From Methanosarcinales archaeon (lineage in GTDB: Archaea; Halobacteriota; Syntropharchaeia; Alkanophagales; Methanospirareceae): DNA of 48,012 nucleotides. This document shows, piece by piece, positions 8,894 to 40,553 of this stretch. The translations under genes and the position numbers were made by a program. The stretch lies in assembly GCA_025464325.1 (NCBI GenBank), contig JAODGH010000032.1:1-48012 (forward strand). The letters run 5' to 3'. The notes below the pieces were generated by a model. That model was given only the letters and a program-made list of their open reading frames with translations. It did not search any database and was not told the DNA's origin. How positions within the stretch are numbered: the stretch's first letter is position 1; each line of letters begins with the position of its first letter.

Positions 8894-9667
8894 ATGAAGA
8901 AGGAGCAACACAGAGAACTGAGAATAGGTAAATTCGGATTCCTCAACAATTTCCTGCCGTATTATCGGCTTGAGCAGGATGGATTCATAAATATTTACGA
9001 AGGTTCACCGCGAGAGCTGGCTTTGTTGTTCGAACGTGATGAAATAGATTTTGCACCACTCCCTTCTTTCTATTACTTACGTAATAAGACGCAGTTGCGA
9101 AGTTATGAGTTCTGTGTCGCGTCGAAGGATAGCGTTTTGAGCGTACTTCTCGTCTCAGAACACGGTGTACAGGATGAAAATGGGCGAATCGCGGTTACAA
9201 ACCAGACCGTAACGTCCGTGAATCTGCTAAAGATAATATTAAATGAGCGTGGTATGACCAACAGGATTTTAGAGTTGAACGCATGTGAAACCAGCGAACT
9301 GCTCAGGCATGGCAGTTACGCACTCGTTATAGGCGATGAGGCGCTGAGGGCACGCTCAAGATATAAAGTTGTTATGGACCTTGGAGAGGAGTGGCATGAT
9401 ATTACCCGTTGTCCCATGGTATTCGGTATCGCGGTATCCTCGCACAAGGAGGACCTGAGTGAAGTGGACCGGACGATACTGGAATCGCTGGCATGGGGCG
9501 AGCAGAATCTGGAAACCGTGATGAGCGAGGCTAAAAAGCGATTTAGCAGTATGCCCGCGGATCTTATAGAACGGTACCTCAATTCTCTCACGTATCGGCT
9601 GGGCACACGAGAAAGAGAAGGCTTAAAAGTATTTGAAGCAAAATGCCATGAATATGGACTATTATGA
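8894..9667 (+). CDS. mqnA: futalosine-pathway menaquinone biosynthesis protein, MqnA/MqnD (VitK2_biosynth) family
   Basis: LRIGKFGFLNNFLPYY, DFAPLPSF and the periplasmic-binding-protein-like length (257 aa). It is directly followed by a CofH/MqnC-type radical-SAM gene. Confidence 0.7.
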   Translation: MKKEQHRELRIGKFGFLNNFLPYYRLEQDGFINIYEGSPRELALLFERDEIDFAPLPSFYYLRNKTQLRSYEFCVASKDSVLSVLLVSEHGVQDENGRIAVTNQTVTSVNLLKIILNERGMTNRILELNACETSELLRHGSYALVIGDEALRARSRYKVVMDLGEEWHDITRCPMVFGIAVSSHKEDLSEVDRTILESLAWGEQNLETVMSEAKKRFSSMPADLIERYLNSLTYRLGTREREGLKVFEAKCHEYGLL

Positions 9668-10730
9668 TGTTTATGTGGATAAGAACCTGAACGGGGAGGA
9701 CCTGAGTTTTGAGGAAGCGTTAAGACTATTCGAGCTACCGCTTCCCGCTCTCGGCAGGATCGCGGATGAGATAAGACGAAAACGCTGTGGGGACCTCGTT
9801 ACATTCGTCATTGATCGTAATATAAACTACACAAATAGGTGCGTATCTAAGTGCAAATTCTGCGCGTTCTATGCGAGACGGGAACAAGACTGTTACAAGT
9901 TAAGTAAACACACCATACTCAGCAAGATAAAAGAGGCGGTTGACGATGGTGCAACACAGATACTCATTCAGGGAGGTCTTGACCCTTCTATCGGGCTTGA
10001 ATGGTTCGAGGATCTATTTGCTACAATAAAGTTACGGTTCCCGCAGGTTCATATTCATAGCCTCTCTCCTCCTGAGGTATTCTTCATTGCAACGAATGAA
10101 GGCATGAGCATAGAGGATACTCTTGCGCGATTGAGAGCAGCAGGGCTGGATTCTCTGCCCGGGGGTGGTGCCGAGATACTCTGTGATCGGGTACGAAAGC
10201 AGATAAGTCCCGGCAAAGTCGGTGTAGAGGGGTGGTTAAAAGTGATGGAGATAGCGCAGAGAATGGGAATGAAGACAACGGCGACAATGATGTTCGGGCA
10301 TATAGAGCGTGATGAGGATATAATTGAGCATCTGTTCCGTGTGCTGGAACTGCAGAACAGGCTACACGGGTTCACAGCGTTCATACCATGGACGTTTCAG
10401 CCATGGCATACCCGGCTATACCCTGAGATAAGAGCCCCCGCACCTGTAACGAGATATCTGCAGGTACTTGCCATATCACGGATAGTACTGCATTCGATAA
10501 GGAACATACAGTCGTCATGGCTGACCCAGGGCATCGAGACAGCGAAGCTGGCACTCTTCTTCGGTGCGAACGATTTCGGTGGTACGATACTTGAGGAGAA
10601 CGTGGTGACTGCTGCGGGACGGGCACATAAGCCGAAGAGGGTGGAAGAGATAGTGAAGGCGATAAAATCTGTTGGTAGACCCGCAGCACAGCGAAATACG
10701 TACTATGAGATACTGAAATACTACGGGTGA
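9633..10730 (+). CDS. radical-SAM enzyme of the MqnC/MqnE (CofG/CofH-like) family
   Basis: Cluster motif CVSKCKFCAF, then QILIQGGL, GAEIL and the C-terminal ANDFGGTILEENVVTAAG. The true start is probably the ATG at 9648 or 9654. I cannot separate MqnC from MqnE by eye. Confidence 0.75.
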   Translation: MKQNAMNMDYYDVYVDKNLNGEDLSFEEALRLFELPLPALGRIADEIRRKRCGDLVTFVIDRNINYTNRCVSKCKFCAFYARREQDCYKLSKHTILSKIKEAVDDGATQILIQGGLDPSIGLEWFEDLFATIKLRFPQVHIHSLSPPEVFFIATNEGMSIEDTLARLRAAGLDSLPGGGAEILCDRVRKQISPGKVGVEGWLKVMEIAQRMGMKTTATMMFGHIERDEDIIEHLFRVLELQNRLHGFTAFIPWTFQPWHTRLYPEIRAPAPVTRYLQVLAISRIVLHSIRNIQSSWLTQGIETAKLALFFGANDFGGTILEENVVTAAGRAHKPKRVEEIVKAIKSVGRPAAQRNTYYEILKYYG

Positions 10731-12100: not shown

Positions 12101-13120
12101 TCATACGTGGAATTTCTGAGCCAGTTCGAATGGATCGGATGCGATGACTGATGCGGCATAGAGCTCCATCGTACCTATATCCGAGGTTCTGTCATCAAGA
12201 TCTCCCCGGTCTACCAGCCTTACCACATGGTACGATCCTGTCTGGAATATTGCAAGATTATAGGACATCACGCCCATATCACGATAGAATCGCAGCAATT
12301 TATAAATAGTACGCGCTATCGCATCACTTCTGCGTGCGGTACTGACAACAACGATCTCCTTCTCCTTCACGGGCGTGAGATAAAATAGTATCCTGTCATT
12401 ATTGCTCGTCCCTGTGAGATCCAGACTTTCGTGTACCTTGCACAGATCTGAAATATAATCAGAGCGATATTGACAATTATATGCAGACACAACGCGATCT
12501 AAAGCTTCTAATTTACCGTATCTCGTCTTCGATGCCGTTAATTGCATATGTCCATGTATGATAGAAGCACCACTGCGCCACAGACAATTCCATAGAAAGA
12601 ACTTGTGCAGTTCATCACCGCTCTCCTTACATACAGATTCGAACCAGCGTTCACAGGTTCGCAGGTAATCAGCTATCCTGTCTTCTGTTATAACCAGCGG
12701 ATTGTGCTCATTGAAGATCACCAGACCGTGATAGGAATCGTACTTAGTGAGGTTACTCGCTGTGACGCAGTATCTCCCCCTGATTCGCCCGAAACTATCC
12801 ATTGGCGTTTGTTCGTCCGGCTTACAGAATCGGCAGTGGGTTTTATCATGAGGTACCGTCTTCTGCAGGCTATCCTTTGGTCTCTCAGCGCGTAACTCGT
12901 TGAAGAGACTGTGTTCCCCCGTGAACCTGTTCTTAATAGATACTATCTGCTGACGTTTAACACGTTCAAGCGATTTGAACCGCGTTTTAACCCAGTCTTC
13001 CATCCCGGAAGGTAGTTTCAACTCACCGGTGAAAGTTTTTATCTCATAGAGACGCATAAGTAACTCATATTCTGTCTTTGATAGCGTAGCAGCTAAATCT
13101 TCGATCCCGGTTATCCGCAT
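12101..13120 (-). CDS. GalT-like HIT-superfamily nucleotidyltransferase (galactose-1-P uridylyltransferase / Apa2-like)
   Basis: Zn-site-like HCRFCKP, NLTKYDSYHGLVIFNEH and the HxHxQ nucleotidyl-histidine motif SIIHGHMQL. Confidence 0.6.
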   Translation of the reverse strand: MRITGIEDLAATLSKTEYELLMRLYEIKTFTGELKLPSGMEDWVKTRFKSLERVKRQQIVSIKNRFTGEHSLFNELRAERPKDSLQKTVPHDKTHCRFCKPDEQTPMDSFGRIRGRYCVTASNLTKYDSYHGLVIFNEHNPLVITEDRIADYLRTCERWFESVCKESGDELHKFFLWNCLWRSGASIIHGHMQLTASKTRYGKLEALDRVVSAYNCQYRSDYISDLCKVHESLDLTGTSNNDRILFYLTPVKEKEIVVVSTARRSDAIARTIYKLLRFYRDMGVMSYNLAIFQTGSYHVVRLVDRGDLDDRTSDIGTMELYAASVIASDPFELAQKFHV

Positions 13121-26009: not shown

Positions 26010-26465
26010 ATGACGACGGTATACGACGTACCAGCGGATGAGCTGGTGAAGAGAGTGGCGGATAGATTGAAGAAGAACAAGCATATTCGCCTCCCCAAAT
26101 GGGCTATGGAAGTGAAGACCGGGGCACATAAAGAATTACCTCCTCAAGATAATGAATGGTGGTACGTACGTGCTGCATCCATGCTGAGGCAGATCTATAT
26201 GCACGGACCGGTGGGTGTGGCACGGCTACGTACGTATTATGGTGGCAGGGTGAGAAGAGGTACGAGACGGGAACGATTTAGAGAAGCTTCTGGTAAGGTT
26301 ATAAGGACGATATTGTCGCAGTTAGAAGAAGCTGGCTATGTTATTAAACCAGAGAAGATCAAGAAGGGACGGATGATATCACCAAAAGGGCAGTCTTTCC
26401 TCGATGATATCGCACATGATATAAAGCTTGAAATGCTTAAAGGAGGTGACCGCAGTGGCAAGTGA
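26010..26465 (+). CDS. rps19e: 30S ribosomal protein S19e
   Basis: [46 protein letters not shown] and [14 protein letters not shown]. Confidence 0.95.
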
Positions 26466-27744: not shown

Positions 27745-29142
27745 TTAACTGGTCGTACGTAAAGCCTCATAGAAACCATATGCAACACACACGGTGAAGA
27801 GCAGCTCGGTAACAGAAACCTGTCCGAGTGTACCGAACATACCTGCAAGTACGTACAGTAAACCCATAGTAACGCTGACCTGTACCATCACGAGTTTCGA
27901 AACATCTCTATCTGTACTTCTCTTCATCGCTTTTAATACTACCCGCGATCGCGGCAATCGTACATATCTTAGCATTGCCTTTATATCCCTCGATTCTGGT
28001 CCCGGTGTTAGTTTTAACCATAAAAACACGGAAAGCATCATTCCCGCAACCAGTATTGGAAAGGTAATGGCGATTCTCGGTGCTAAATGCCAGTCCCAGG
28101 GTCCATAAATCGGACTGAAATAGTACATCAAGCCGGATACGGCATTACCCCATTTGTCATGTGTCCCGGGTACGGTGATCCCTCGCAGCCATAAAAACCA
28201 TCCAAAACTACGGATGACTGATAAAATCAACCAGCTGAGATTGAGAAATGCCAGTGGAACTACAAATGCGTATGAGAAATAAAGCAGTGGTAATCGCACT
28301 GTTGTCCGATGTGCATACTTACCAGGTATCTTAAGCTCTACACGTGTGGTCAGTAGATAAACTAATATGAGGAATATAGCGATTGTAGAGAGGAGCGCGA
28401 TTAAGTTATGCTGGAACAGGAGGGTCATGTCGTATCCATGCGTTTGAGAAGCCTGCGGGAACAGAGCAGCCCGGCGCGGTATGACTCCTGCGAGAAGATC
28501 ATTCTGGTCCGGAAACCATCTAACGAGCCCGGTGATTAACCGCAGAGATACATCGGCAAGGATGAATAACGATATGCCCGAGCCTATACCCCAGCGTGAA
28601 ACCACTTCTTCAAGGTAGTATATCAGCACACCACCGAGGAATATCTGGATGAACAATATAATCGTGAGAATTCTGAGCGATACGCCGAGTTGGGTGGCAA
28701 ACCATGGATCGGGCTCATAGAAACCATGTAAATATACCATACTCATGAGGATAGAGAATACTACCACGAGCAGTTTCTGGATGTTCAGATACAGCGCTTG
28801 ATCTCTGGTATTGCTCAGATCAAGCTTCAGTAGCTTTGGTCCAGCCAATATCTGAGAGATGACTGCAGCGTATATGATCGGCTGGAGTCCAAGCGCGGTC
28901 AATGAGAACCGGTGTCCCGCGAATAGCGCTCGCCACCGAACAAAAAGGTCTATTGAGGCAGGTGACAGCCCAAAAAGAGGTATATTACTCAGGATAAAGT
29001 ATAACAGAAGAGGAATAGCGGTGAACATAAGCCTCACGGCAAATGGGACTCGACCCTGAGGCTGTGAGACCATGGGTATCCAGCGTAAAACCACACCTCT
29101 GTCCCGTGCAAATGTACACATACCCGTATAAAATGTACACAT
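27745..29142 (-). CDS. divergent SecY paralogue (candidate accessory translocon subunit, 'SecY2')
   Basis: Full-length 10-TM ORF that aligns with the adjacent SecY, e.g. NIPLFGLSP, RFSLTALG, IQKLLVVVFSI, WGIGSGISLF, HDKWGNAVSGLMYYFSPIYGPWDW and GMFGTLGQ. TM7, the TM8 start and the C-terminal cytosolic loop are rewritten. The start is ambiguous (29142, 29121 or 29073) because of a 21-bp duplication. Confidence 0.8.
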   Translation of the reverse strand: MCTFYTGMCTFARDRGVVLRWIPMVSQPQGRVPFAVRLMFTAIPLLLYFILSNIPLFGLSPASIDLFVRWRALFAGHRFSLTALGLQPIIYAAVISQILAGPKLLKLDLSNTRDQALYLNIQKLLVVVFSILMSMVYLHGFYEPDPWFATQLGVSLRILTIILFIQIFLGGVLIYYLEEVVSRWGIGSGISLFILADVSLRLITGLVRWFPDQNDLLAGVIPRRAALFPQASQTHGYDMTLLFQHNLIALLSTIAIFLILVYLLTTRVELKIPGKYAHRTTVRLPLLYFSYAFVVPLAFLNLSWLILSVIRSFGWFLWLRGITVPGTHDKWGNAVSGLMYYFSPIYGPWDWHLAPRIAITFPILVAGMMLSVFLWLKLTPGPESRDIKAMLRYVRLPRSRVVLKAMKRSTDRDVSKLVMVQVSVTMGLLYVLAGMFGTLGQVSVTELLFTVCVAYGFYEALRTTS

Positions 29143-29150
29143 ACCCGTAT
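29110..29150. repeat. perfect 21-bp-period tandem duplication (aaatgtacacatacccgtat x2) at the secY/secY2 junction
   Basis: 29110-29129 and 29131-29150 are identical 20-mers separated by a single a. On the minus strand this duplicates ATG-TGT-ACA-TTT-TAT-ACG-GGT (MCTFYTG). Confidence 0.95.
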
Positions 29151-29156
29151 TAAGAA

Positions 29157-30620
29157 CTATTCCTCACCGAAGAATCTTCTTAACGCCGGATACATCTCCA
29201 TCATCTGTTCTGATGCCACCTCCTCATAAAGGTTGTATGCAATACTAACAGCGAGCAGTAAGCCCGTACCAGAAGCCTGTCCGAGTGTACCGAACATATT
29301 CGCAAGTACACATAACGTACCAAGAAGTGCACCACCCATTATCGCGATACGCGGTATGTAGCCCTCCATCAATCGCTCTATCGTTGCGGGATTGCGGCGA
29401 TGTCCCGGTATCTGCAGTCCGGAGCGGTATATCTGGCCCGCAACGTCACGGGCGCCCATACCGGTTGTCTCTATCCAGAAGAGCGCAAATATCGCGCCCC
29501 CAACTACCATAAATACCAGATCTATACCGAGCCGTATAGCTACCTGCCAGCCCGCATGTGGCGTCGCCATAAGACTGGGTAGCCAGTCCCAGGGTCCATA
29601 AATCGGACTGAGATAGTACATCAATCCAGATACAGCGCTACCCCATTTATCATATGTCCCTAATACAGTGATCCCGTGCAGCCACAAAGCCCGACCGAAA
29701 CCCTGTATACTCATCTGTAGTGCTCTAACAAGTATCATTGGCAGTACACTCGCGTATAATAGCTTGATCGGGAACCTGCCCCGGGCACCTCGTGCCAGCG
29801 AATGTGCCAGCGGGATCTCCAGACGCGTACTCTCCAGATACACAACGATGAAGAATACGGCAATAGTGGAGAAGAGAGCGATTAAATTATGCTGGAACAG
29901 GAAAGTTATACCCCCTTCCAGGATCTCATAAGCTTCTACATGAAGCGGTGAACCCGGCCAGAGCAGTACAAACCAGCGTGGTATAACTCCTACCGGGAGA
30001 CCGCTCTGATCCGGAACCCAATTAATGAGCCCGGTGATTACCTGCTGAGACACACCTGCAATGATGAATAGCGAAACGCCAGAGCCTATTCCCCATTTCG
30101 ATACTACCTCATCCATGAAATATATGAGCATACCACCGAGAAATACCTGGATGAACAGTATAATAGAGACGATCTTGAGCGAAACGCCGAGTTGCGCGGC
30201 TATACCGGGATCAGGCTTATAAAAACCCAATACATAGACCAGACTCATGAAGATAGAGAATACCACCACGAGCAGTTTCTGGATGTTCTGATAGAACTTC
30301 TGATCCTCGGAATTGGTCAGATCCAGCGACAATATCCCGGCGCCCACGAGTAGTTGTAGGATAATAGAAGCATCAACGATGGGCATGATACCGAGTGCGG
30401 TGAGTGAGAAACGATTACCCGCAAATATCGCTCGCCATCTGCCGAAAAGGTCAAGCGAATCGGGTGACAGTCCAAAAAGAGGCACGTTACCCAGCGCGAA
30501 ATAGAGTATCAGTATAGCAAGAGTCCATATCAACTTGGTCTTGAAATGAACGTGCCAGCTCGGACGTTCAACCATCGGGAATCTGTCCATCAGAGGTGTC
30601 AGAACTTCTCGTAGACTCAT
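29157..30620 (-). CDS. secY: preprotein translocase subunit SecY (canonical copy)
   Basis: Archaeal SecY motifs: EIPLAHSLARGARGRFPIKLLYASVLPMIL, FWIETTGMGARDVAGQI, IPGHRRNP, GYIPRIA and GTGLLLAVSIAYNLYEE. Starts 14 nt after uL15. Confidence 0.95.
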   Translation of the reverse strand: MSLREVLTPLMDRFPMVERPSWHVHFKTKLIWTLAILILYFALGNVPLFGLSPDSLDLFGRWRAIFAGNRFSLTALGIMPIVDASIILQLLVGAGILSLDLTNSEDQKFYQNIQKLLVVVFSIFMSLVYVLGFYKPDPGIAAQLGVSLKIVSIILFIQVFLGGMLIYFMDEVVSKWGIGSGVSLFIIAGVSQQVITGLINWVPDQSGLPVGVIPRWFVLLWPGSPLHVEAYEILEGGITFLFQHNLIALFSTIAVFFIVVYLESTRLEIPLAHSLARGARGRFPIKLLYASVLPMILVRALQMSIQGFGRALWLHGITVLGTYDKWGSAVSGLMYYLSPIYGPWDWLPSLMATPHAGWQVAIRLGIDLVFMVVGGAIFALFWIETTGMGARDVAGQIYRSGLQIPGHRRNPATIERLMEGYIPRIAIMGGALLGTLCVLANMFGTLGQASGTGLLLAVSIAYNLYEEVASEQMMEMYPALRRFFGEE

Positions 30621-30634
30621 TGCTTGTATCTACC

Positions 30635-31060
30635 TCAGCTAACTACTTCTACACTACCACCTGCTTGCTCTATCTTACCCTTTGCTATGCTCGATATCGC
30701 TTTTGCCTTAACTATCAACTTCTTTGTTACTTCTCCCTTGCCCAGTATCTTCGATATGCCGAGTTGGGTTGTATCGAGTATAAAAGCGTCATCACGCGCT
30801 TCCGCTTTGCCCGTCTTCAGCAATTCGTCCAAACGCTCTTCCAGTTCCCCTACGTTCAGTACCAGCTCATCACGCCTGATTGCAATATAAGGACGACCTC
30901 GCTTACCTTTCCTTATACCCTGCTTCAGAGATCGGACGAAATGATGTTCATAAGCGCCAGCATTACCGGAACCGCCTTTGCTGCCCTTACCACGGCGTTT
31001 CTTATGCGATCCCCCGCCACATGTCCTGGTTCCCCGTATCTTCTTTATCCTACGCTTCAT
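30635..31060 (-). CDS. rpl15: 50S ribosomal protein uL15
   Basis: [28 protein letters not shown] glycine/basic N-terminus. 141 aa, immediately upstream of secY. Confidence 0.95.
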
Positions 31061-31122: not shown

Positions 31123-31151
31123 CTCATCAATAGTCTCAATTGGAGTTGGAG

Positions 31152-31706
31152 ATGATGACGGAAGTAGAAATAAAAGTGGAGAATGTGGTGGCGAATGCAA
31201 GGATCGCTGATGAATTAGATCTGAGATATATCGAATCAAAGTTAGAAGACGCGGTATTCACGAAGAAGAAGTTTCCGGGGCTGGTGTACAGGACCCATAA
31301 CCCTAAAGCGGCTTTTCTCATCTTTCGTTCGGGCAAGGTAGTATGTACAGGCTCGAAGACCGAAGAAGGTGTGCGTAAGGTAATGGACATACTTGCTGCT
31401 GACCTCAGACGTATAGGGATAGATGTAGCAGAACATCCGGAGTTCAAGGTGCAGAATATCGTCGCTTCCGCCAATATCGGGAAAGAGCTCAACCTTGGCG
31501 CGATCGTTGTGGGTCTGGAGCTTGAGGGTATGGAATACGAGCCAGAAGTGTTTCCAGGGCTTGTTTATCGTATTGATGATCCTAAAAGTGCCATATTGAT
31601 ATTCAGCTCGGGGCGGCTGGTGATAACCGGTGGCAAGACGGTTGAGGATTGTAAAAGAGCGGTGAACGTTTTGATGGCGAAGTTGAAGGAGTTGAAGCTG
31701 ATCTGA
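31152..31706 (+). CDS. tbp: TATA-box-binding protein
   Basis: Two direct repeats: IENVVA(S)A...FPGLVYR...LIFRSGKVVCTGSK and VQNIVASA...FPGLVYRI...ILIFSSGRLVITGGK. Confidence 0.95.
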   Translation: MMTEVEIKVENVVANARIADELDLRYIESKLEDAVFTKKKFPGLVYRTHNPKAAFLIFRSGKVVCTGSKTEEGVRKVMDILAADLRRIGIDVAEHPEFKVQNIVASANIGKELNLGAIVVGLELEGMEYEPEVFPGLVYRIDDPKSAILIFSSGRLVITGGKTVEDCKRAVNVLMAKLKELKLI

Positions 31707-31715
31707 TCAAAAGGT

Positions 31716-32138
31716 ATGTTTGAGCCCAAGATAGTGGCTTTCTGCTGTAACTGGTGCTCTTATGCGGCGGCAGACCTCGCGGGTGTATCGCGTTTCCAGT
31801 ACCCACCGAACGTGCGTATAATACGCGTGATGTGTTCGGGGCGGGTAGAACCTGAGTTCATATTTGATGCATTCAAACACGGAGCCGATGGTGTCATTGT
31901 CACGGGCTGTTATCCCGGAGAATGTCATTACATATCAGGCAATCAGAAAGTCGAACAGCGAGTGGCGAAGGTGAAGAAGGCGATGGAGTATCTGGGACTC
32001 GAACCCGAGCGGCTGCGGCTGGAATGGATGTCAGCAGCAGAGAGCGAGCGGTTCGCTTCGGTTATGCGCGACTTCACAGAGGCGATAAGGGCGCTGGGGC
32101 CTCTAAAATACAGGGTATGTGATAGAGATGGCAGATAA
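31716..32138 (+). CDS. mvhD: methyl-viologen-reducing hydrogenase delta subunit (MvhD/FlpD family)
   Basis: IVAFCCNWCSYAAADLAG, IRVMCSGRV, GADGVIVTGCYPGECHY. Confidence 0.9.
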   Translation: MFEPKIVAFCCNWCSYAAADLAGVSRFQYPPNVRIIRVMCSGRVEPEFIFDAFKHGADGVIVTGCYPGECHYISGNQKVEQRVAKVKKAMEYLGLEPERLRLEWMSAAESERFASVMRDFTEAIRALGPLKYRVCDRDGR

Positions 32139-33426
32139 GAAGGATGCAGTGGCGGTAATAGGTGGTGGTATTGCGGGTATACAGGCGGCAAACGATCTCG
32201 GTGAGATGGGTTTCCACGTGTACCTGCTGGAGAAGGAGCCATCGATTGGCGGGCGAGTGGCACGACTCAATCGTATATTTCCCACCGGTGAGAGCGCCAT
32301 ATCGATACTGGAGCCGAAGATACAGGCGCTTGTGGATAATGATAACATCGAACTACTGACATGTGCCGAAGTAGCGGAATTAAAAGGTACCGCGGGTGAT
32401 TTTGAACTCACGGTTGAGTGTAAACCGCGCTATGTCGATGAGGCTAAGTGTGTGGGCTGTCTACGTTGTATGGAGGTTTGCCCGGTTGAGTCGCCGGATC
32501 GTTTCAATGAAGGGCTGGGCACAAGGAAAGCTATCTTTATGTATCCACATGCTGTCCCGTCCTGTGCGACCATTGATATGGATGACTGCATACGAAGCGA
32601 CGGCTGTGATGCGTGTGTACGCGCATGCGAATACGATGCGATAGACTTCACACAGGAGAAACGGATCCGTAAGTTGAAAGTGGGGACGATAATCGTAGCA
32701 CCGGGTGCGGTAGCGTATGATCCCGGGTATGAGAACGATTATGGGTATGGGCTGTATGATAATGTGATAACGACAATGGAATTTGAACGACTTACGGACC
32801 CCGAAGGACCAACCGGCGGTGATCTGATCAGACCTTCGGACTGTGAGACGCCCATGCGTGTGGGCTTTATCAATTGCGTCGGCTCACGCGATATGAACAG
32901 GAACGTGTATTGTTCGGGAGGTGTGTGCTGCATGGAGAACATAAAGAACGCGATACTGCTTAAAGAGGCTCACCCGGAGGTCATATGCTATATCTTCTAT
33001 ATCGATATAAGAGCACCCTTCAGGAGCTATGAAGAGCTTTATACACGTGCACGTGAGCTTGGTATTCGCTTTATTCGCGGTAGACCGGCAGAAGTAACGG
33101 AAATGGATAACGGTAACCTGATAGTCAGAGCGGAAGACACGTTGAAGGGCATGGTACGTAATGTTGAGGTAGAACTCGTCGTGCTCGGCATCGGCAATGT
33201 GCCCGGTGAGGACATACCGAAACTATCAAATATGCTGCAGATACCGCTTGCAGAAGACGGTATGTTCAGGGAGTTACATTCCCGAGCAGCACCCGTGGAT
33301 AGCGAGCGCGAGGGTATATTCATCGCAGGTGCGGCTGCGGGTCCAAAGGATATCGCTATTGCTGTTGCACAGGGCAGTAGTGCAGCTGCGAGAGCCGCTT
33401 CCACGTTGCTCCACTCTCACAGTTAG
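32128..33426 (+). CDS. hdrA: HdrA-like FAD/FeS oxidoreductase, short form (heterodisulfide reductase subunit A family)
   Basis: Dinucleotide fold VAVIGGGIAGIQAANDL...LLEKEPSIGGR, an inserted 2x[4Fe-4S] ferredoxin (CVGCLRCMEVCP ... CDACVRAC) and the HdrA signature CVGSRDMNRNVYCSGGVCC. At only about 432 aa it is shorter than classical HdrA. Confidence 0.85.
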   Translation: MADKKDAVAVIGGGIAGIQAANDLGEMGFHVYLLEKEPSIGGRVARLNRIFPTGESAISILEPKIQALVDNDNIELLTCAEVAELKGTAGDFELTVECKPRYVDEAKCVGCLRCMEVCPVESPDRFNEGLGTRKAIFMYPHAVPSCATIDMDDCIRSDGCDACVRACEYDAIDFTQEKRIRKLKVGTIIVAPGAVAYDPGYENDYGYGLYDNVITTMEFERLTDPEGPTGGDLIRPSDCETPMRVGFINCVGSRDMNRNVYCSGGVCCMENIKNAILLKEAHPEVICYIFYIDIRAPFRSYEELYTRARELGIRFIRGRPAEVTEMDNGNLIVRAEDTLKGMVRNVEVELVVLGIGNVPGEDIPKLSNMLQIPLAEDGMFRELHSRAAPVDSEREGIFIAGAAAGPKDIAIAVAQGSSAAARAASTLLHSHS

Positions 33427-39136: not shown

Positions 39137-39838
39137 ATGATCAGGAGCGAAAAAATGAGTTGGAGTATAGTATGGCTGGTATGGCTGACCGTGCTGGGAC
39201 TGCTTTTTATCGGTGTTATCGGTGTTATCGGTGTTATTACAGCCGCGCCGCAGGTAGTGGATTATACTGATCTGATCAAGAAGTTACCGCAGCCACCGAA
39301 CGGATGGACCGCGAATGAACCGGAGGGGCTGAATTCTAAAACACCTGCCGGTGCCTTCAGCTTTGCGAGCAGGGAGTATACACAGTCAGGTACAGATAGA
39401 ATTGTGGATGTTACAATATTCGGTGGCGGCGATCTAATGCCGTTCTGGCAGGAATGGCAGGGCTTATATGCCTATGAATCTACGGATGGTTATGCGAAAC
39501 GGGTAACGGTTAATGATTTCCCCGCCTGGGAAGTGTACAGCAACGATACAGGCGAGTACATGCTATACATCGGTATAAACAGGAAAATAGGTGTGGTGGT
39601 GACAACCGATCAGGATAAGGATACACTGTATTTATTCGCAAACTCGATAGACTACAGCGGACTTGCCGCATTGTGCGGGGCGATAAATCCAACACCGCTC
39701 GTAACACCGGGTGAAGCGCCGCCGACAGCCACGAGCACACCAGCATCGGGGTCTGGAGATACCGGTAAGACGCCAGGGTTTGGATGGGTACATGCAATCG
39801 CAGGTGCTATTGCTGCATTATACATTTTGAGAAGGTAG
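39137..39838 (+). CDS. secreted/surface hypothetical protein with PGF-CTERM archaeosortase sorting signal
   Basis: An N-terminal signal anchor and a Thr/Pro/Ser-rich linker (PPTATSTPASGSGDTGKT), then PGFGWVHAIAGAIAALYILRR at the extreme C-terminus. Confidence 0.7.
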   Translation: MIRSEKMSWSIVWLVWLTVLGLLFIGVIGVIGVITAAPQVVDYTDLIKKLPQPPNGWTANEPEGLNSKTPAGAFSFASREYTQSGTDRIVDVTIFGGGDLMPFWQEWQGLYAYESTDGYAKRVTVNDFPAWEVYSNDTGEYMLYIGINRKIGVVVTTDQDKDTLYLFANSIDYSGLAALCGAINPTPLVTPGEAPPTATSTPASGSGDTGKTPGFGWVHAIAGAIAALYILRR

Positions 39839-40160: not shown

Positions 40161-40553
40161 ATGACACTGAATGATCCGCTTGCAGATGCACTTTCGCATA
40201 TAAAGAATACAGAACGTGTGGGTAAGCTGGAATGTATTATAAAACCGGCTTCTAAACTGATCGGTAATGTACTCAGCGTGATGAAAGAAGGTGGCTACAT
40301 AGATGAGTTCGAGTACATAGACGATGGCAGAGGTGGCATATTCAAAGTGAAGCTCAGAGGCAAGATAAATGATTGTAATGCGATCAAACCCCGTTTCTTC
40401 GTTCGTGTGAAGGAGTACGAGAAATGGGAGAAGCGGTTCTTACCTGCGCGTGATTTTGGTATGCTCATAGTTACAACTTCAAAGGGCGTGATGTCGCATC
40501 ATGATGCGATAGAAGCGGGCATAGGTGGGCAGTTGCTCGCGTTCGTTTATTAA
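40161..40553 (+). CDS. rps8: 30S ribosomal protein uS8
   Basis: [35 protein letters not shown] and [22 protein letters not shown]. Confidence 0.95.

Follow-up and report, generated by a model that had tools for sequence, protein, structure and literature searches.

Archaeal SecY is usually regarded as the product of a universal single-copy housekeeping gene. To our knowledge, accessory SecY channels have been described only in bacteria, where they work with SecA2, and in plastids and eukaryotes; archaea lack SecA. Here, we describe a second, divergent SecY gene on the 48,012 nt contig JAODGH010000032.1, the whole of which is referred to as the window. Two full-length SecY open reading frames (ORFs) lie head to tail on its minus strand, 14 nt apart and directly 3' of the uL15 gene. 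The ORF coordinates and the Pfam matches agree with an earlier note on this DNA, made from the sequence alone, which had reported ORFs of 487 and 465 aa in this arrangement. The upstream ORF is called copy 1 and the downstream ORF copy 2:

29157..30620, minus strand: copy 1, canonical SecY, 487 aa, passing the NCBIfam SecY equivalogs

27745..29142, minus strand: copy 2, divergent ANME-1 SecY paralogue, 465 aa, with Pfam SecY and plug matches and placement in the paralogue clade

Copy 2 shares with canonical archaeal SecY/Sec61-alpha (M. jannaschii, 1RHZ; P. furiosus, 3MP7) the Pfam family, the plug, ten predicted transmembrane (TM) helices, the hairpin of the cytosolic loop between TM6 and TM7 (L6/7) and the pore ring. 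In contrast to the canonical protein, copy 2 and its clade are devoid of the FWxETTG and IPG(H/F)RR motifs and of the C-terminal tail, TM7 is longer and TM2b ends in AGPK; the clade also scores under the NCBIfam equivalog cut-offs and evolves 2–5 times faster. The bacterial SecA2–SecY2 (aSec) system is similar in concept, being built on a second divergent and non-essential SecY with presumably narrower or altered clients. The ANME-1 paralogue differs from it in being of independent origin, because its clade nests inside ANME-1 SecY, and in sharing an operon with the canonical secY. Neither the window nor the related loci examined showed a domain of SecA or Asp type, and no glycosyltransferase or serine-rich substrate was found nearby. 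The closest solved structures to copy 2 are archaeal and eukaryotic. Yeast Ssh1, Sec61A2 and plastid SCY2 are lineage-specific duplications of the channel subunit that give a dispensable second translocon, as the ANME-1 duplication would, and Ssh1 (2WW9) is among the structural matches of the copy-2 model. The ANME-1 paralogue nevertheless belongs to none of the SecY2, Ssh1 and SCY2 families. Ssh1 has its own partners, Sbh2/Sss1, and SCY2 has SECA2, whereas no dedicated partners were found near the ANME-1 gene; furthermore, the ANME-1 pair is tandem, operonic and under continuing gene conversion.

Copy 1 is recognizable as the canonical housekeeping SecY, as had been proposed. It matches Pfam SecY (PF00344) with 231 bits and Plug_translocon (PF10559) with 49 bits, passes both NCBIfam SecY equivalogs (NF006341, 319 against a cut-off of 300; TIGR00967, 271 against 254), retains 98% of the universally conserved columns and shares 74–90% identity with its canonical counterparts in other ANME-1. 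Its best solved structures are the SecY proteins of P. furiosus and M. jannaschii (E = 7e-91 and 5e-80). Copy 2 matches PF00344 with 101.5 bits over profile positions 1–306 (cut-off 32.2) and PF10559 with 43.7 bits, the plug matches of both copies being above gathering scores; under NF006341 and TIGR00967 it reaches 166.5 (cut-off 300) and 127.5 (cut-off 253.6), respectively. The two copies are about 50–52% identical (BLASTP 50%, E = 1e-142). By region, the identity is 64% over copy-1 residues 15–200 (TM1–TM5, for which roughly 60% had been estimated by eye), 36% over L6/7–TM7, 78% in the TM7–TM8 loop and 31% from TM8 onwards. The loop HDKWGNAVSGLMYYFSPIYGPWDW, described earlier as almost identical, carries the same residue in copy 1 at 21 of its 24 positions.

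Trees were calculated from distances by the neighbour-joining (NJ) method with 100 bootstraps, using Archaeoglobaceae, Syntrophoarchaeum, Methanoperedens, Methanothrix, Halobacteriales, P. furiosus and M. jannaschii as outgroups. All ANME-1 SecY sequences, canonical and paralogous, formed one group in 100/100 bootstraps, and the paralogue clade including copy 2 was also recovered in 100/100; copy 1 and copy 2 were sisters in 0/100. The trees place copy 2 in a SecY paralogue family that extends across ANME-1 (Methanophagales) and trace the family to one early tandem duplication inside ANME-1. AOM70-1 (L051) was the sole ANME-1 sequence to branch below the duplication in the NJ tree; the branches are long and this placement was not relied on. 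Homologues are overwhelmingly ANME-1/Methanophagales sequences, and the paralogues among them carry the database name 'preprotein translocase subunit SecY'. By BLASTP, the downstream paralogues are approximately 55% identical to the canonical genes and 47–51% identical to copy 2. When 50%-identity representatives were searched with profiles, paralogues and canonical ANME-1 SecY merged into the same or fragmentary clusters.

The paralogue clade is marked by W[LIVM]K[LF][ST][PE]G with a 1-aa insertion (WLKLTPG) in place of FWxxTTG, by AGPK at the end of TM2b, by 2–3-aa insertions that lengthen TM7 and by KA[IM]KR..DR (KAIKRAVDR) in the cytosolic loop between TM8 and TM9 (L8/9); all of these are present in copy 2. 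The canonical C-terminal tail ASEQMMEMYPxMRRFFG is absent from the clade and likewise from copy 2. Copy 2 reads LWLKLTPG and ..RLPRSR.. and ends in YEALRTTS, versus the canonical FWxETTG, IPG(H/F)R(R/K) and ..EQxxEMxPxxRxxFG, all three of which copy 1 shares with the outgroups and the remaining canonical sequences of ANME-1. Of 38 discriminating columns, 26 show the paralogue state in copy 2 and six the canonical one. The changes do concentrate in TM7, the FWxETTG entry, L8/9 and TM10, the parts that the earlier note had listed as rewritten, but they are inherited clade signatures and not local rewriting.

The paralogue signature is borne by at least 40 clusters at 90% identity. In a genome scan, with one genome per GTDB species, the intact tandem pair lay on a single contig in nine species representatives, and in one more it is split by a contig end; intact pairs are found at L001/L011, L002, L006, L010, L012, L013, L015, L016, L018 and L026, among others. 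Two genomes, G60ANME1 (L009) and Yes46-13 (L014), hold an intact paralogue away from secY. L056 was considered as a close orthologue (57% identical to the N-terminal half of copy 2) and was rejected, being a canonical SecY truncated where its contig stops and 91% identical to copy 1.

Comparison of copy 2 with copy 1 and with the other paralogues divides it into the following segments:

28414..28830, minus strand: TM3–TM6 tract, copy-2 residues ~105–243, nearer to copy 1 and the canonical genes than to the paralogues

28222..28377, minus strand: paralogue-specific segment 1, comprising cytosolic loop L6/7 and the longer TM7 of the lateral gate, ELKIPGKYAHRTTVRLPLLYFSYAFVVPLAFLNLSW, unconverted

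28089..28221, minus strand: tract of the TM7–TM8 extracytoplasmic loop, ...GTHDKWGNAVSGLMYYFSPIYGPWDW, with nucleotide identity of 0.81–0.93 to copy 1

27748..28083, minus strand: paralogue-specific segment 2, the TM8 end LWLKLTPGPESRD, L8/9 (..RLPRSRVVLKAMKRSTDRD), TM9, TM10 and the truncated C-terminus, from alignment blocks

In most sliding windows of the 28414..28830 tract, the nucleotide identity is 0.72–0.84 to copy 1 and 0.48–0.63 to the paralogues, the latter rising to as much as 0.73 at the tract ends and around residues 157–181. Within the tracts, copy 2 is nearer to copy 1 than to any paralogue or to the canonical genes of close relatives, and a fraction of 0.7–0.86 of the codons for conserved residues is identical, against about 0.3–0.5 outside and 0.55 overall. 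Partition trees bear out the mosaic: copy 2 grouped with the paralogues in 100/100 bootstraps for copy-1 residues 255–305 plus 361–470 and in 92/100 for residues 1–96, was sister to copy 1 alone in 76/100 for residues 306–350 and, for residues 101–235, grouped with the canonical sequences in 49/100 and with the paralogues in 14/100. The 28089..28221 tract is identified from these comparisons as a recent gene conversion from copy 1, and the 28414..28830 tract is read as an older conversion from the canonical copy. The near-identical DNA strings pointed out by the earlier note are indeed exact and occur once per gene (0 to 0.01 expected by chance), the 23-nt string lying in 28414..28830; they are gene-conversion tracts from copy 1 and not residual similarity. 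Taken as a whole, copy 2 can be described as a fast-evolving mosaic of paralogue-type and canonical-derived segments with an intact ORF.

The within-genome identity between the copies was compared for 13 pairs (nucleotides, copy-1 numbering). It is patchy and the patches depend on the lineage: 0.80–0.90 over residues 101–130 and 0.87–0.93 over residues 321–350 in the window, 0.97–0.98 over residues 11–80 in L012, 0.82–0.93 over residues 191–230 in L013 and, over residues 311–360, 0.77–0.98 in L016 and L018 (0.93–0.98 in L016) and about 0.9 in L006 and L010. Three segments are unhomogenised in 13 of 13 pairs, namely L6/7–TM7 (~261–300), the TM8 end–L8/9–TM9 (~361–430) and the last part of TM10 plus the C-terminus. 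The nucleotide identity of the L6/7–TM7 segment is 0.35–0.62 in tandem pairs; for segment 2 it is at most 0.72 in all pairs, and dN/dS (the ratio of nonsynonymous to synonymous substitution rates) between paralogues is 0.24–0.48. The simplest reading would be that selection purges convertants in the three unconverted segments and, because convertants are removed there, these segments would carry the functional distinction of the paralogue.

The TM7–TM8 loop (copy-1 residues ~311–360) is a recurrent conversion hotspot, with identities of 0.9–0.98 in several lineages against ~0.5–0.7 elsewhere in the genes. In G60ANME1 it is 0.92 identical between the copies, although the paralogue is not in tandem there.

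Values of dN/dS were well below 1 throughout: 0.33 between copy 1 and copy 2 and, among low-divergence orthologues, 0.18–0.36 for the paralogue and 0.05–0.17 for the canonical gene. The paralogue-specific segments gave mostly 0.2–0.45; dS is saturated between copy 2 and its nearest paralogue (L009). These estimates indicate that the paralogue family is under purifying selection that is more relaxed than that on the canonical gene.

The channel features were mapped by alignment to M. jannaschii SecY, the TM7 part of the mapping being less certain owing to the insertions. At the pore-ring positions (M. jannaschii Ile75, Val79, Ile170, Ile174, Ile260 and Leu406), copy 2 has L, I, I, I, A and F, and the clade has I/V, I, V/I/L, I, V/L/M and V/L/M, all aliphatic. 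L6/7 is extra basic in most paralogues (KRRxxRGRxR), and L8/9 retains one or two arginines in most. A model of copy 2 was calculated with AlphaFold2 from a 120-sequence alignment (predicted local distance difference test, pLDDT, 66.8; predicted template-modelling score, pTM, 0.63) and contains the expected helices of the ten-TM SecY fold together with the L6/7 hairpin. An alignment of 22 paralogues gave an unusable pLDDT of 46.8. A Foldseek search with the model returned SecY/Sec61 structures at the top (2yxr, 1rhz), matched over the full length, with E ~1e-13, a template-modelling score of ~0.6 and ~455–480 aligned columns.

On this evidence we consider it fairly probable that copy 2, as a member of the ANME-1 paralogue family, serves as an accessory alpha-subunit of the translocon whose gate and docking surfaces are altered. 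The family goes back to a single early tandem duplication within ANME-1; where the paralogue is retained, it lies directly 3' of the canonical secY. It keeps the parts needed for a channel: ten TM helices in a SecY fold, a hydrophobic pore ring, the plug and the hairpin of L6/7. Its lateral gate is remodelled in a fixed, clade-wide manner, with AGPK at the end of TM2b and a longer TM7, and so is its cytosolic docking surface, through the basic L6/7 of most members, WLKLTPG, the altered IPGHRR tip of L8/9 and the loss of the C-terminal tail. Conversion from the canonical gene repeatedly overwrites the rest of the paralogue and spares the remodelled segments, which are also kept under purifying selection. 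Together with SecE and Sec-beta, presumably those that canonical SecY uses, the product may form an alternative or accessory translocon that recognizes different clients or partners. Such a translocon would be useful and, because several lineages have lost the paralogue, non-essential.

Several observations weigh against this interpretation. Directly 3' of the canonical secY, the paralogue is interrupted or eroded in at least eight ANME-1 species representatives (remnants at L008, L025, L029, L030 in ANME-1-THS, L031/L032 in AMOR_1b/1a, L038, L039 and L059), and about 27 further species have no paralogue beside secY, among them the closest relatives of the window, AMOR_3 and G60ANME1, in which the tandem slot is empty. 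Since the paralogue is interrupted, eroded or absent in many ANME-1 lineages, its function is judged to be dispensable. Copy 2 itself departs from 18% of the columns on which 13 other paralogues agree (0–10% for the 13 themselves); it has lost the extra-basic L6/7 (KRRxxRGRxR) of the clade and has a 12-aa deletion in the TM7–TM8 loop and a 2-aa deletion in L8/9. The single-nucleotide polymorphisms (SNPs) between strains are three nonsynonymous to one synonymous in copy 2 compared with 10:19 in the neighbouring genes (Fisher p = 0.28, with few SNPs), a difference too slight to be informative that leans towards relaxation. The copy-2 model is of just moderate confidence (pLDDT 66.8), gene conversion obscures dN/dS as well as branch lengths, and the trees are NJ trees alone.

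The same points feed the strongest of the rival explanations, that the copy 2 of the window is a relic on its way to loss, its reading frame open partly by chance and through patching by conversion from copy 1. On this view the family may have had a function in the past, but the lineage of the window would no longer require the gene, which would be drifting. The gene is repeatedly eroded elsewhere in ANME-1 and its slot is empty in the closest relatives; beyond the changes at clade-invariant columns, the atypical deletions, the lost basic L6/7 and the 3:1 SNP ratio, the 5' end is unstable between strains and the score is far under the NCBIfam cut-offs. Among the paralogues only the sequence P0081 is a comparable outlier, with 22% of the paralogue-invariant columns altered (leave-one-out controls, 0–10%). 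We nevertheless regard a relic as unlikely. An ORF of ~465 codons has stayed open despite ~50% amino-acid divergence, and the same locus with an intact copy 2 is present in three other assemblies (GCA_025464385, GCA_025464355 and GCA_025464185; ~99–99.9% nucleotide identity). No stop codons or frameshifts were found in copy 2 in the four strain-level assemblies, the 5' indels between strains being in frame. The substitutions avoid conserved columns: copy 2 retains 83% of 130 universally conserved columns and agrees with the majority at 18% of the variable ones, and many of its changes at clade-invariant columns are conservative (I/L/V/M exchanges). The dN/dS of 0.33 against copy 1, the TM hydropathy and the predicted fold point in the same direction. 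Copy 1 had seemed to be disrupted in two sister assemblies (a 193-aa call in L085 and no call in L086); this was rejected, as the interruptions are runs of N and not mutations.

The preference of the earlier note for neofunctionalisation over decay is therefore borne out in part: the full-length SecY fold and the dN/dS of 0.33 agree with it, but the orthologues, for which frameshifts had been named as a sign of decay, are interrupted or eroded in at least eight other ANME-1 lineages and the window copy is among the two fastest-evolving. The subject is larger than a lone duplicate, namely a clade-wide family with conversion-shielded segments; for the window copy the case is less clear-cut, as no other intact member is so eroded.

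A partner or regulatory role, in which the paralogue is a subunit of the canonical SecY, for example in a hetero-oligomer with one copy docking and the other conducting, is less probable still. Both genes belong to the same transcription unit in all tandem pairs, and this reading would explain such fixed co-expression; the differences cluster in the cytosolic docking loops and the C-terminal tail, and no conserved dedicated accessory genes lie alongside. The plug and the hydrophobic pore ring are conserved, however, and would not be needed by a non-conducting subunit, and L009 and L014 hold the paralogue away from secY.

The relocated paralogues have unrelated neighbours, and no shared partner gene was found next to those of L009 and L014. 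The MAG (metagenome-assembled genome) Yes46-13 (L008, 2380–3825, and L014, 5956–7377) holds as many as three SecY genes, since a tandem paralogue that is interrupted and the intact relocated one accompany the canonical gene. The relocated copy overlaps an SCP2-domain gene by 4 nt and is followed by a 230-aa ORF and by a PQQ beta-propeller protein with a PGF-CTERM anchor. In G60ANME1 (L009, 2371–7389) the relocated paralogue lies beside a divergent DUF4013/CcmE-like membrane protein and a T2SSE (FlaI/PilB-type) ATPase. Nor was a dedicated partner gene conserved beside the tandem pair; the downstream genes vary between the lineages examined.

A recent duplication private to the window genome and followed by rapid neofunctionalisation, as the earlier note had implied, is very improbable. 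The copies are adjacent and share near-identical stretches of DNA, but these stretches are local conversion tracts, the diverged motifs occur in at least 40 other sequences and copy 2 groups with the paralogues of other species and never with copy 1; the tree, the clade signatures and the partition placement together refute it. Lastly, an assembly or binning chimera joining the SecY genes of two organisms, which the metagenomic source of the genome and the runs of N inside copy 1 in two sister assemblies might suggest, is refuted for practical purposes, since the junction recurs in four independent assemblies at > 99% identity, in at least nine other species and in JGI metagenome contigs (and so is not restricted to a single assembly, a sign of artefact in the earlier note), the GC content is uniform over the pair and the conversion tracts show that both genes share one genome.

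Returning to the accessory-translocon interpretation, we entertain only tentatively, as something possible, its further-reaching form, that the paralogue makes up the first known archaeal accessory Sec translocon with distinct clients or a distinct docking partner, or an obligate SecY–SecY2 hetero-oligomer. On this reading the paralogue would be co-expressed with the housekeeping SecY and would owe its distinctness to the remodelled gate (TM2b/TM7) and cytosolic surface (L6/7, L8/9, no C-terminal tail), with selection shielding the segments that determine specificity from conversion. If this were true, candidate clients in these syntrophic methane oxidisers could be proteins of the cell envelope or of extracellular electron transfer. 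In agreement with the earlier note, no description of an archaeal SecY paralogue was found in the searchable literature; subscription-only literature lay outside the search and the novelty is provisional. The one paper found with SecY and ANME-1 together in its text is unrelated. A review from 2018 on archaeal surface biogenesis names paralogues of Tat components, of signal peptidase and of archaeosortase but none of SecY, and SecY goes unmentioned in the two major papers on ANME comparative genomics. A paralogue that keeps the pore and plug and carries fixed changes in the gate and docking surfaces would be a natural experiment on translocon specificity without SecA, and it bears on how archaea achieve post-translational or specialised secretion. 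Recurrent conversion with spared segments flags candidate specificity determinants without experiment. None of the hosts is in culture, many lineages can do without the paralogue, and its function is deduced from sequence. There may also be a practical consequence: PF00344 accepts both copies (TIGR00967 accepts copy 1 only), and marker-based contamination estimates for ANME-1 MAGs could be inflated.

The surroundings of the pair comprise the following features:

30635..31060, minus strand: uL15 gene, Pfam PF00828 (Ribosomal_L27A), 53.5 bits, the first gene of the uL15–secY–secY2 unit

31140–31706, plus strand: TATA-binding protein (TBP) gene, divergent from uL15 and just upstream of it

29110..29151, no strand: 21-nt tandem duplication at the copy-2 5' end (29110–29130 / 29131–29151), found by repeat search and adjoining a 15-nt insertion

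The pair had been assigned to the slot of an spc-type operon in which secY is followed by adk. Instead, there is a short uL15–secY–secY2 unit with TBP divergent from it; downstream there is no adk but an amino-acid kinase gene that converges on copy 2. The TBP/uL15–SecY–SecY layout recurs in L001, L002 and L005 (ANME-1 GoMg2 and JGI metagenome contigs included), and the upstream synteny is kept. A TATA-like AT-rich element, aagtatatataa, lies ~40–50 nt upstream of the uL15 ATG and may act as a promoter. Given the short spacing of the genes, co-transcription of secY and secY2 within the unit is very probable, and translation of the two copies is probably coupled.

Public gene calls put the start of copy 2 at Met24 (29073), giving 442 aa. 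The ATG of the 465-aa ORF is at +14 nt from the copy-1 stop, and in every other tandem pair with a placeable start codon the spacing is +2 to +22 nt. The 465-aa start is favoured over Met24 because this spacing fits the other tandem pairs and the N-terminal extension is then of normal length. For the Met24 start, inspection by eye for a Shine–Dalgarno sequence gave just distant GAGG-like strings, one of them within a strain-specific insertion. The 21-nt duplication and the 15-nt insertion at the 5' end of copy 2, both multiples of three, are absent from the sister assemblies L005 and L085. The duplication generates the string TTTTATAC 5' of Met24 (window 29088–29151).

Some irregularities were noted among the canonical genes of other contigs. 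Canonical ANME-1 secY contigs occur in MAGs labelled Desulfobacteria bacterium, Nitrosotalea sp. and Candidatus Syntrophoarchaeum sp. BS750m-G82 (L055, L059 and L036, respectively), which probably reflects mis-binning or mislabelling. In L058 (5215–6691) the canonical secY is present as two overlapping ORFs with an apparent frameshift, probably an assembly error.

Further observations concern the neighbourhood. Ribosomal-protein genes are dispersed in the window (40161–40553, 26010–26465 and 30635–31060) and form no spc-type cluster, uS8 standing alone beside an archease gene and eS19 elsewhere. A FlpD/MvhD-like and HdrA-like gene pair (window 31716–33426) lies just past TBP, as it does in L001, L005, L013, L017 and L019; it is not at that position in L002, L006, L012 and L016. 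In one ANME-1 lineage (L002/L003, 2302–2598) an archaeal EMC6-like gene (PF19094) is found two genes from TBP and close to the secY pair. Three window ORFs, 131–691(−), 12101–13120(−) and 39137–39838(+), of 186, 339 and 233 aa, are without a Pfam match at E ≤ 1e-4. At 8894–10730 of the window, adjoining MqnA-like (VitK2_biosynth) and MqnC/CofH-like radical-SAM genes correspond to futalosine-type menaquinone biosynthesis in an ANME-1 genome.

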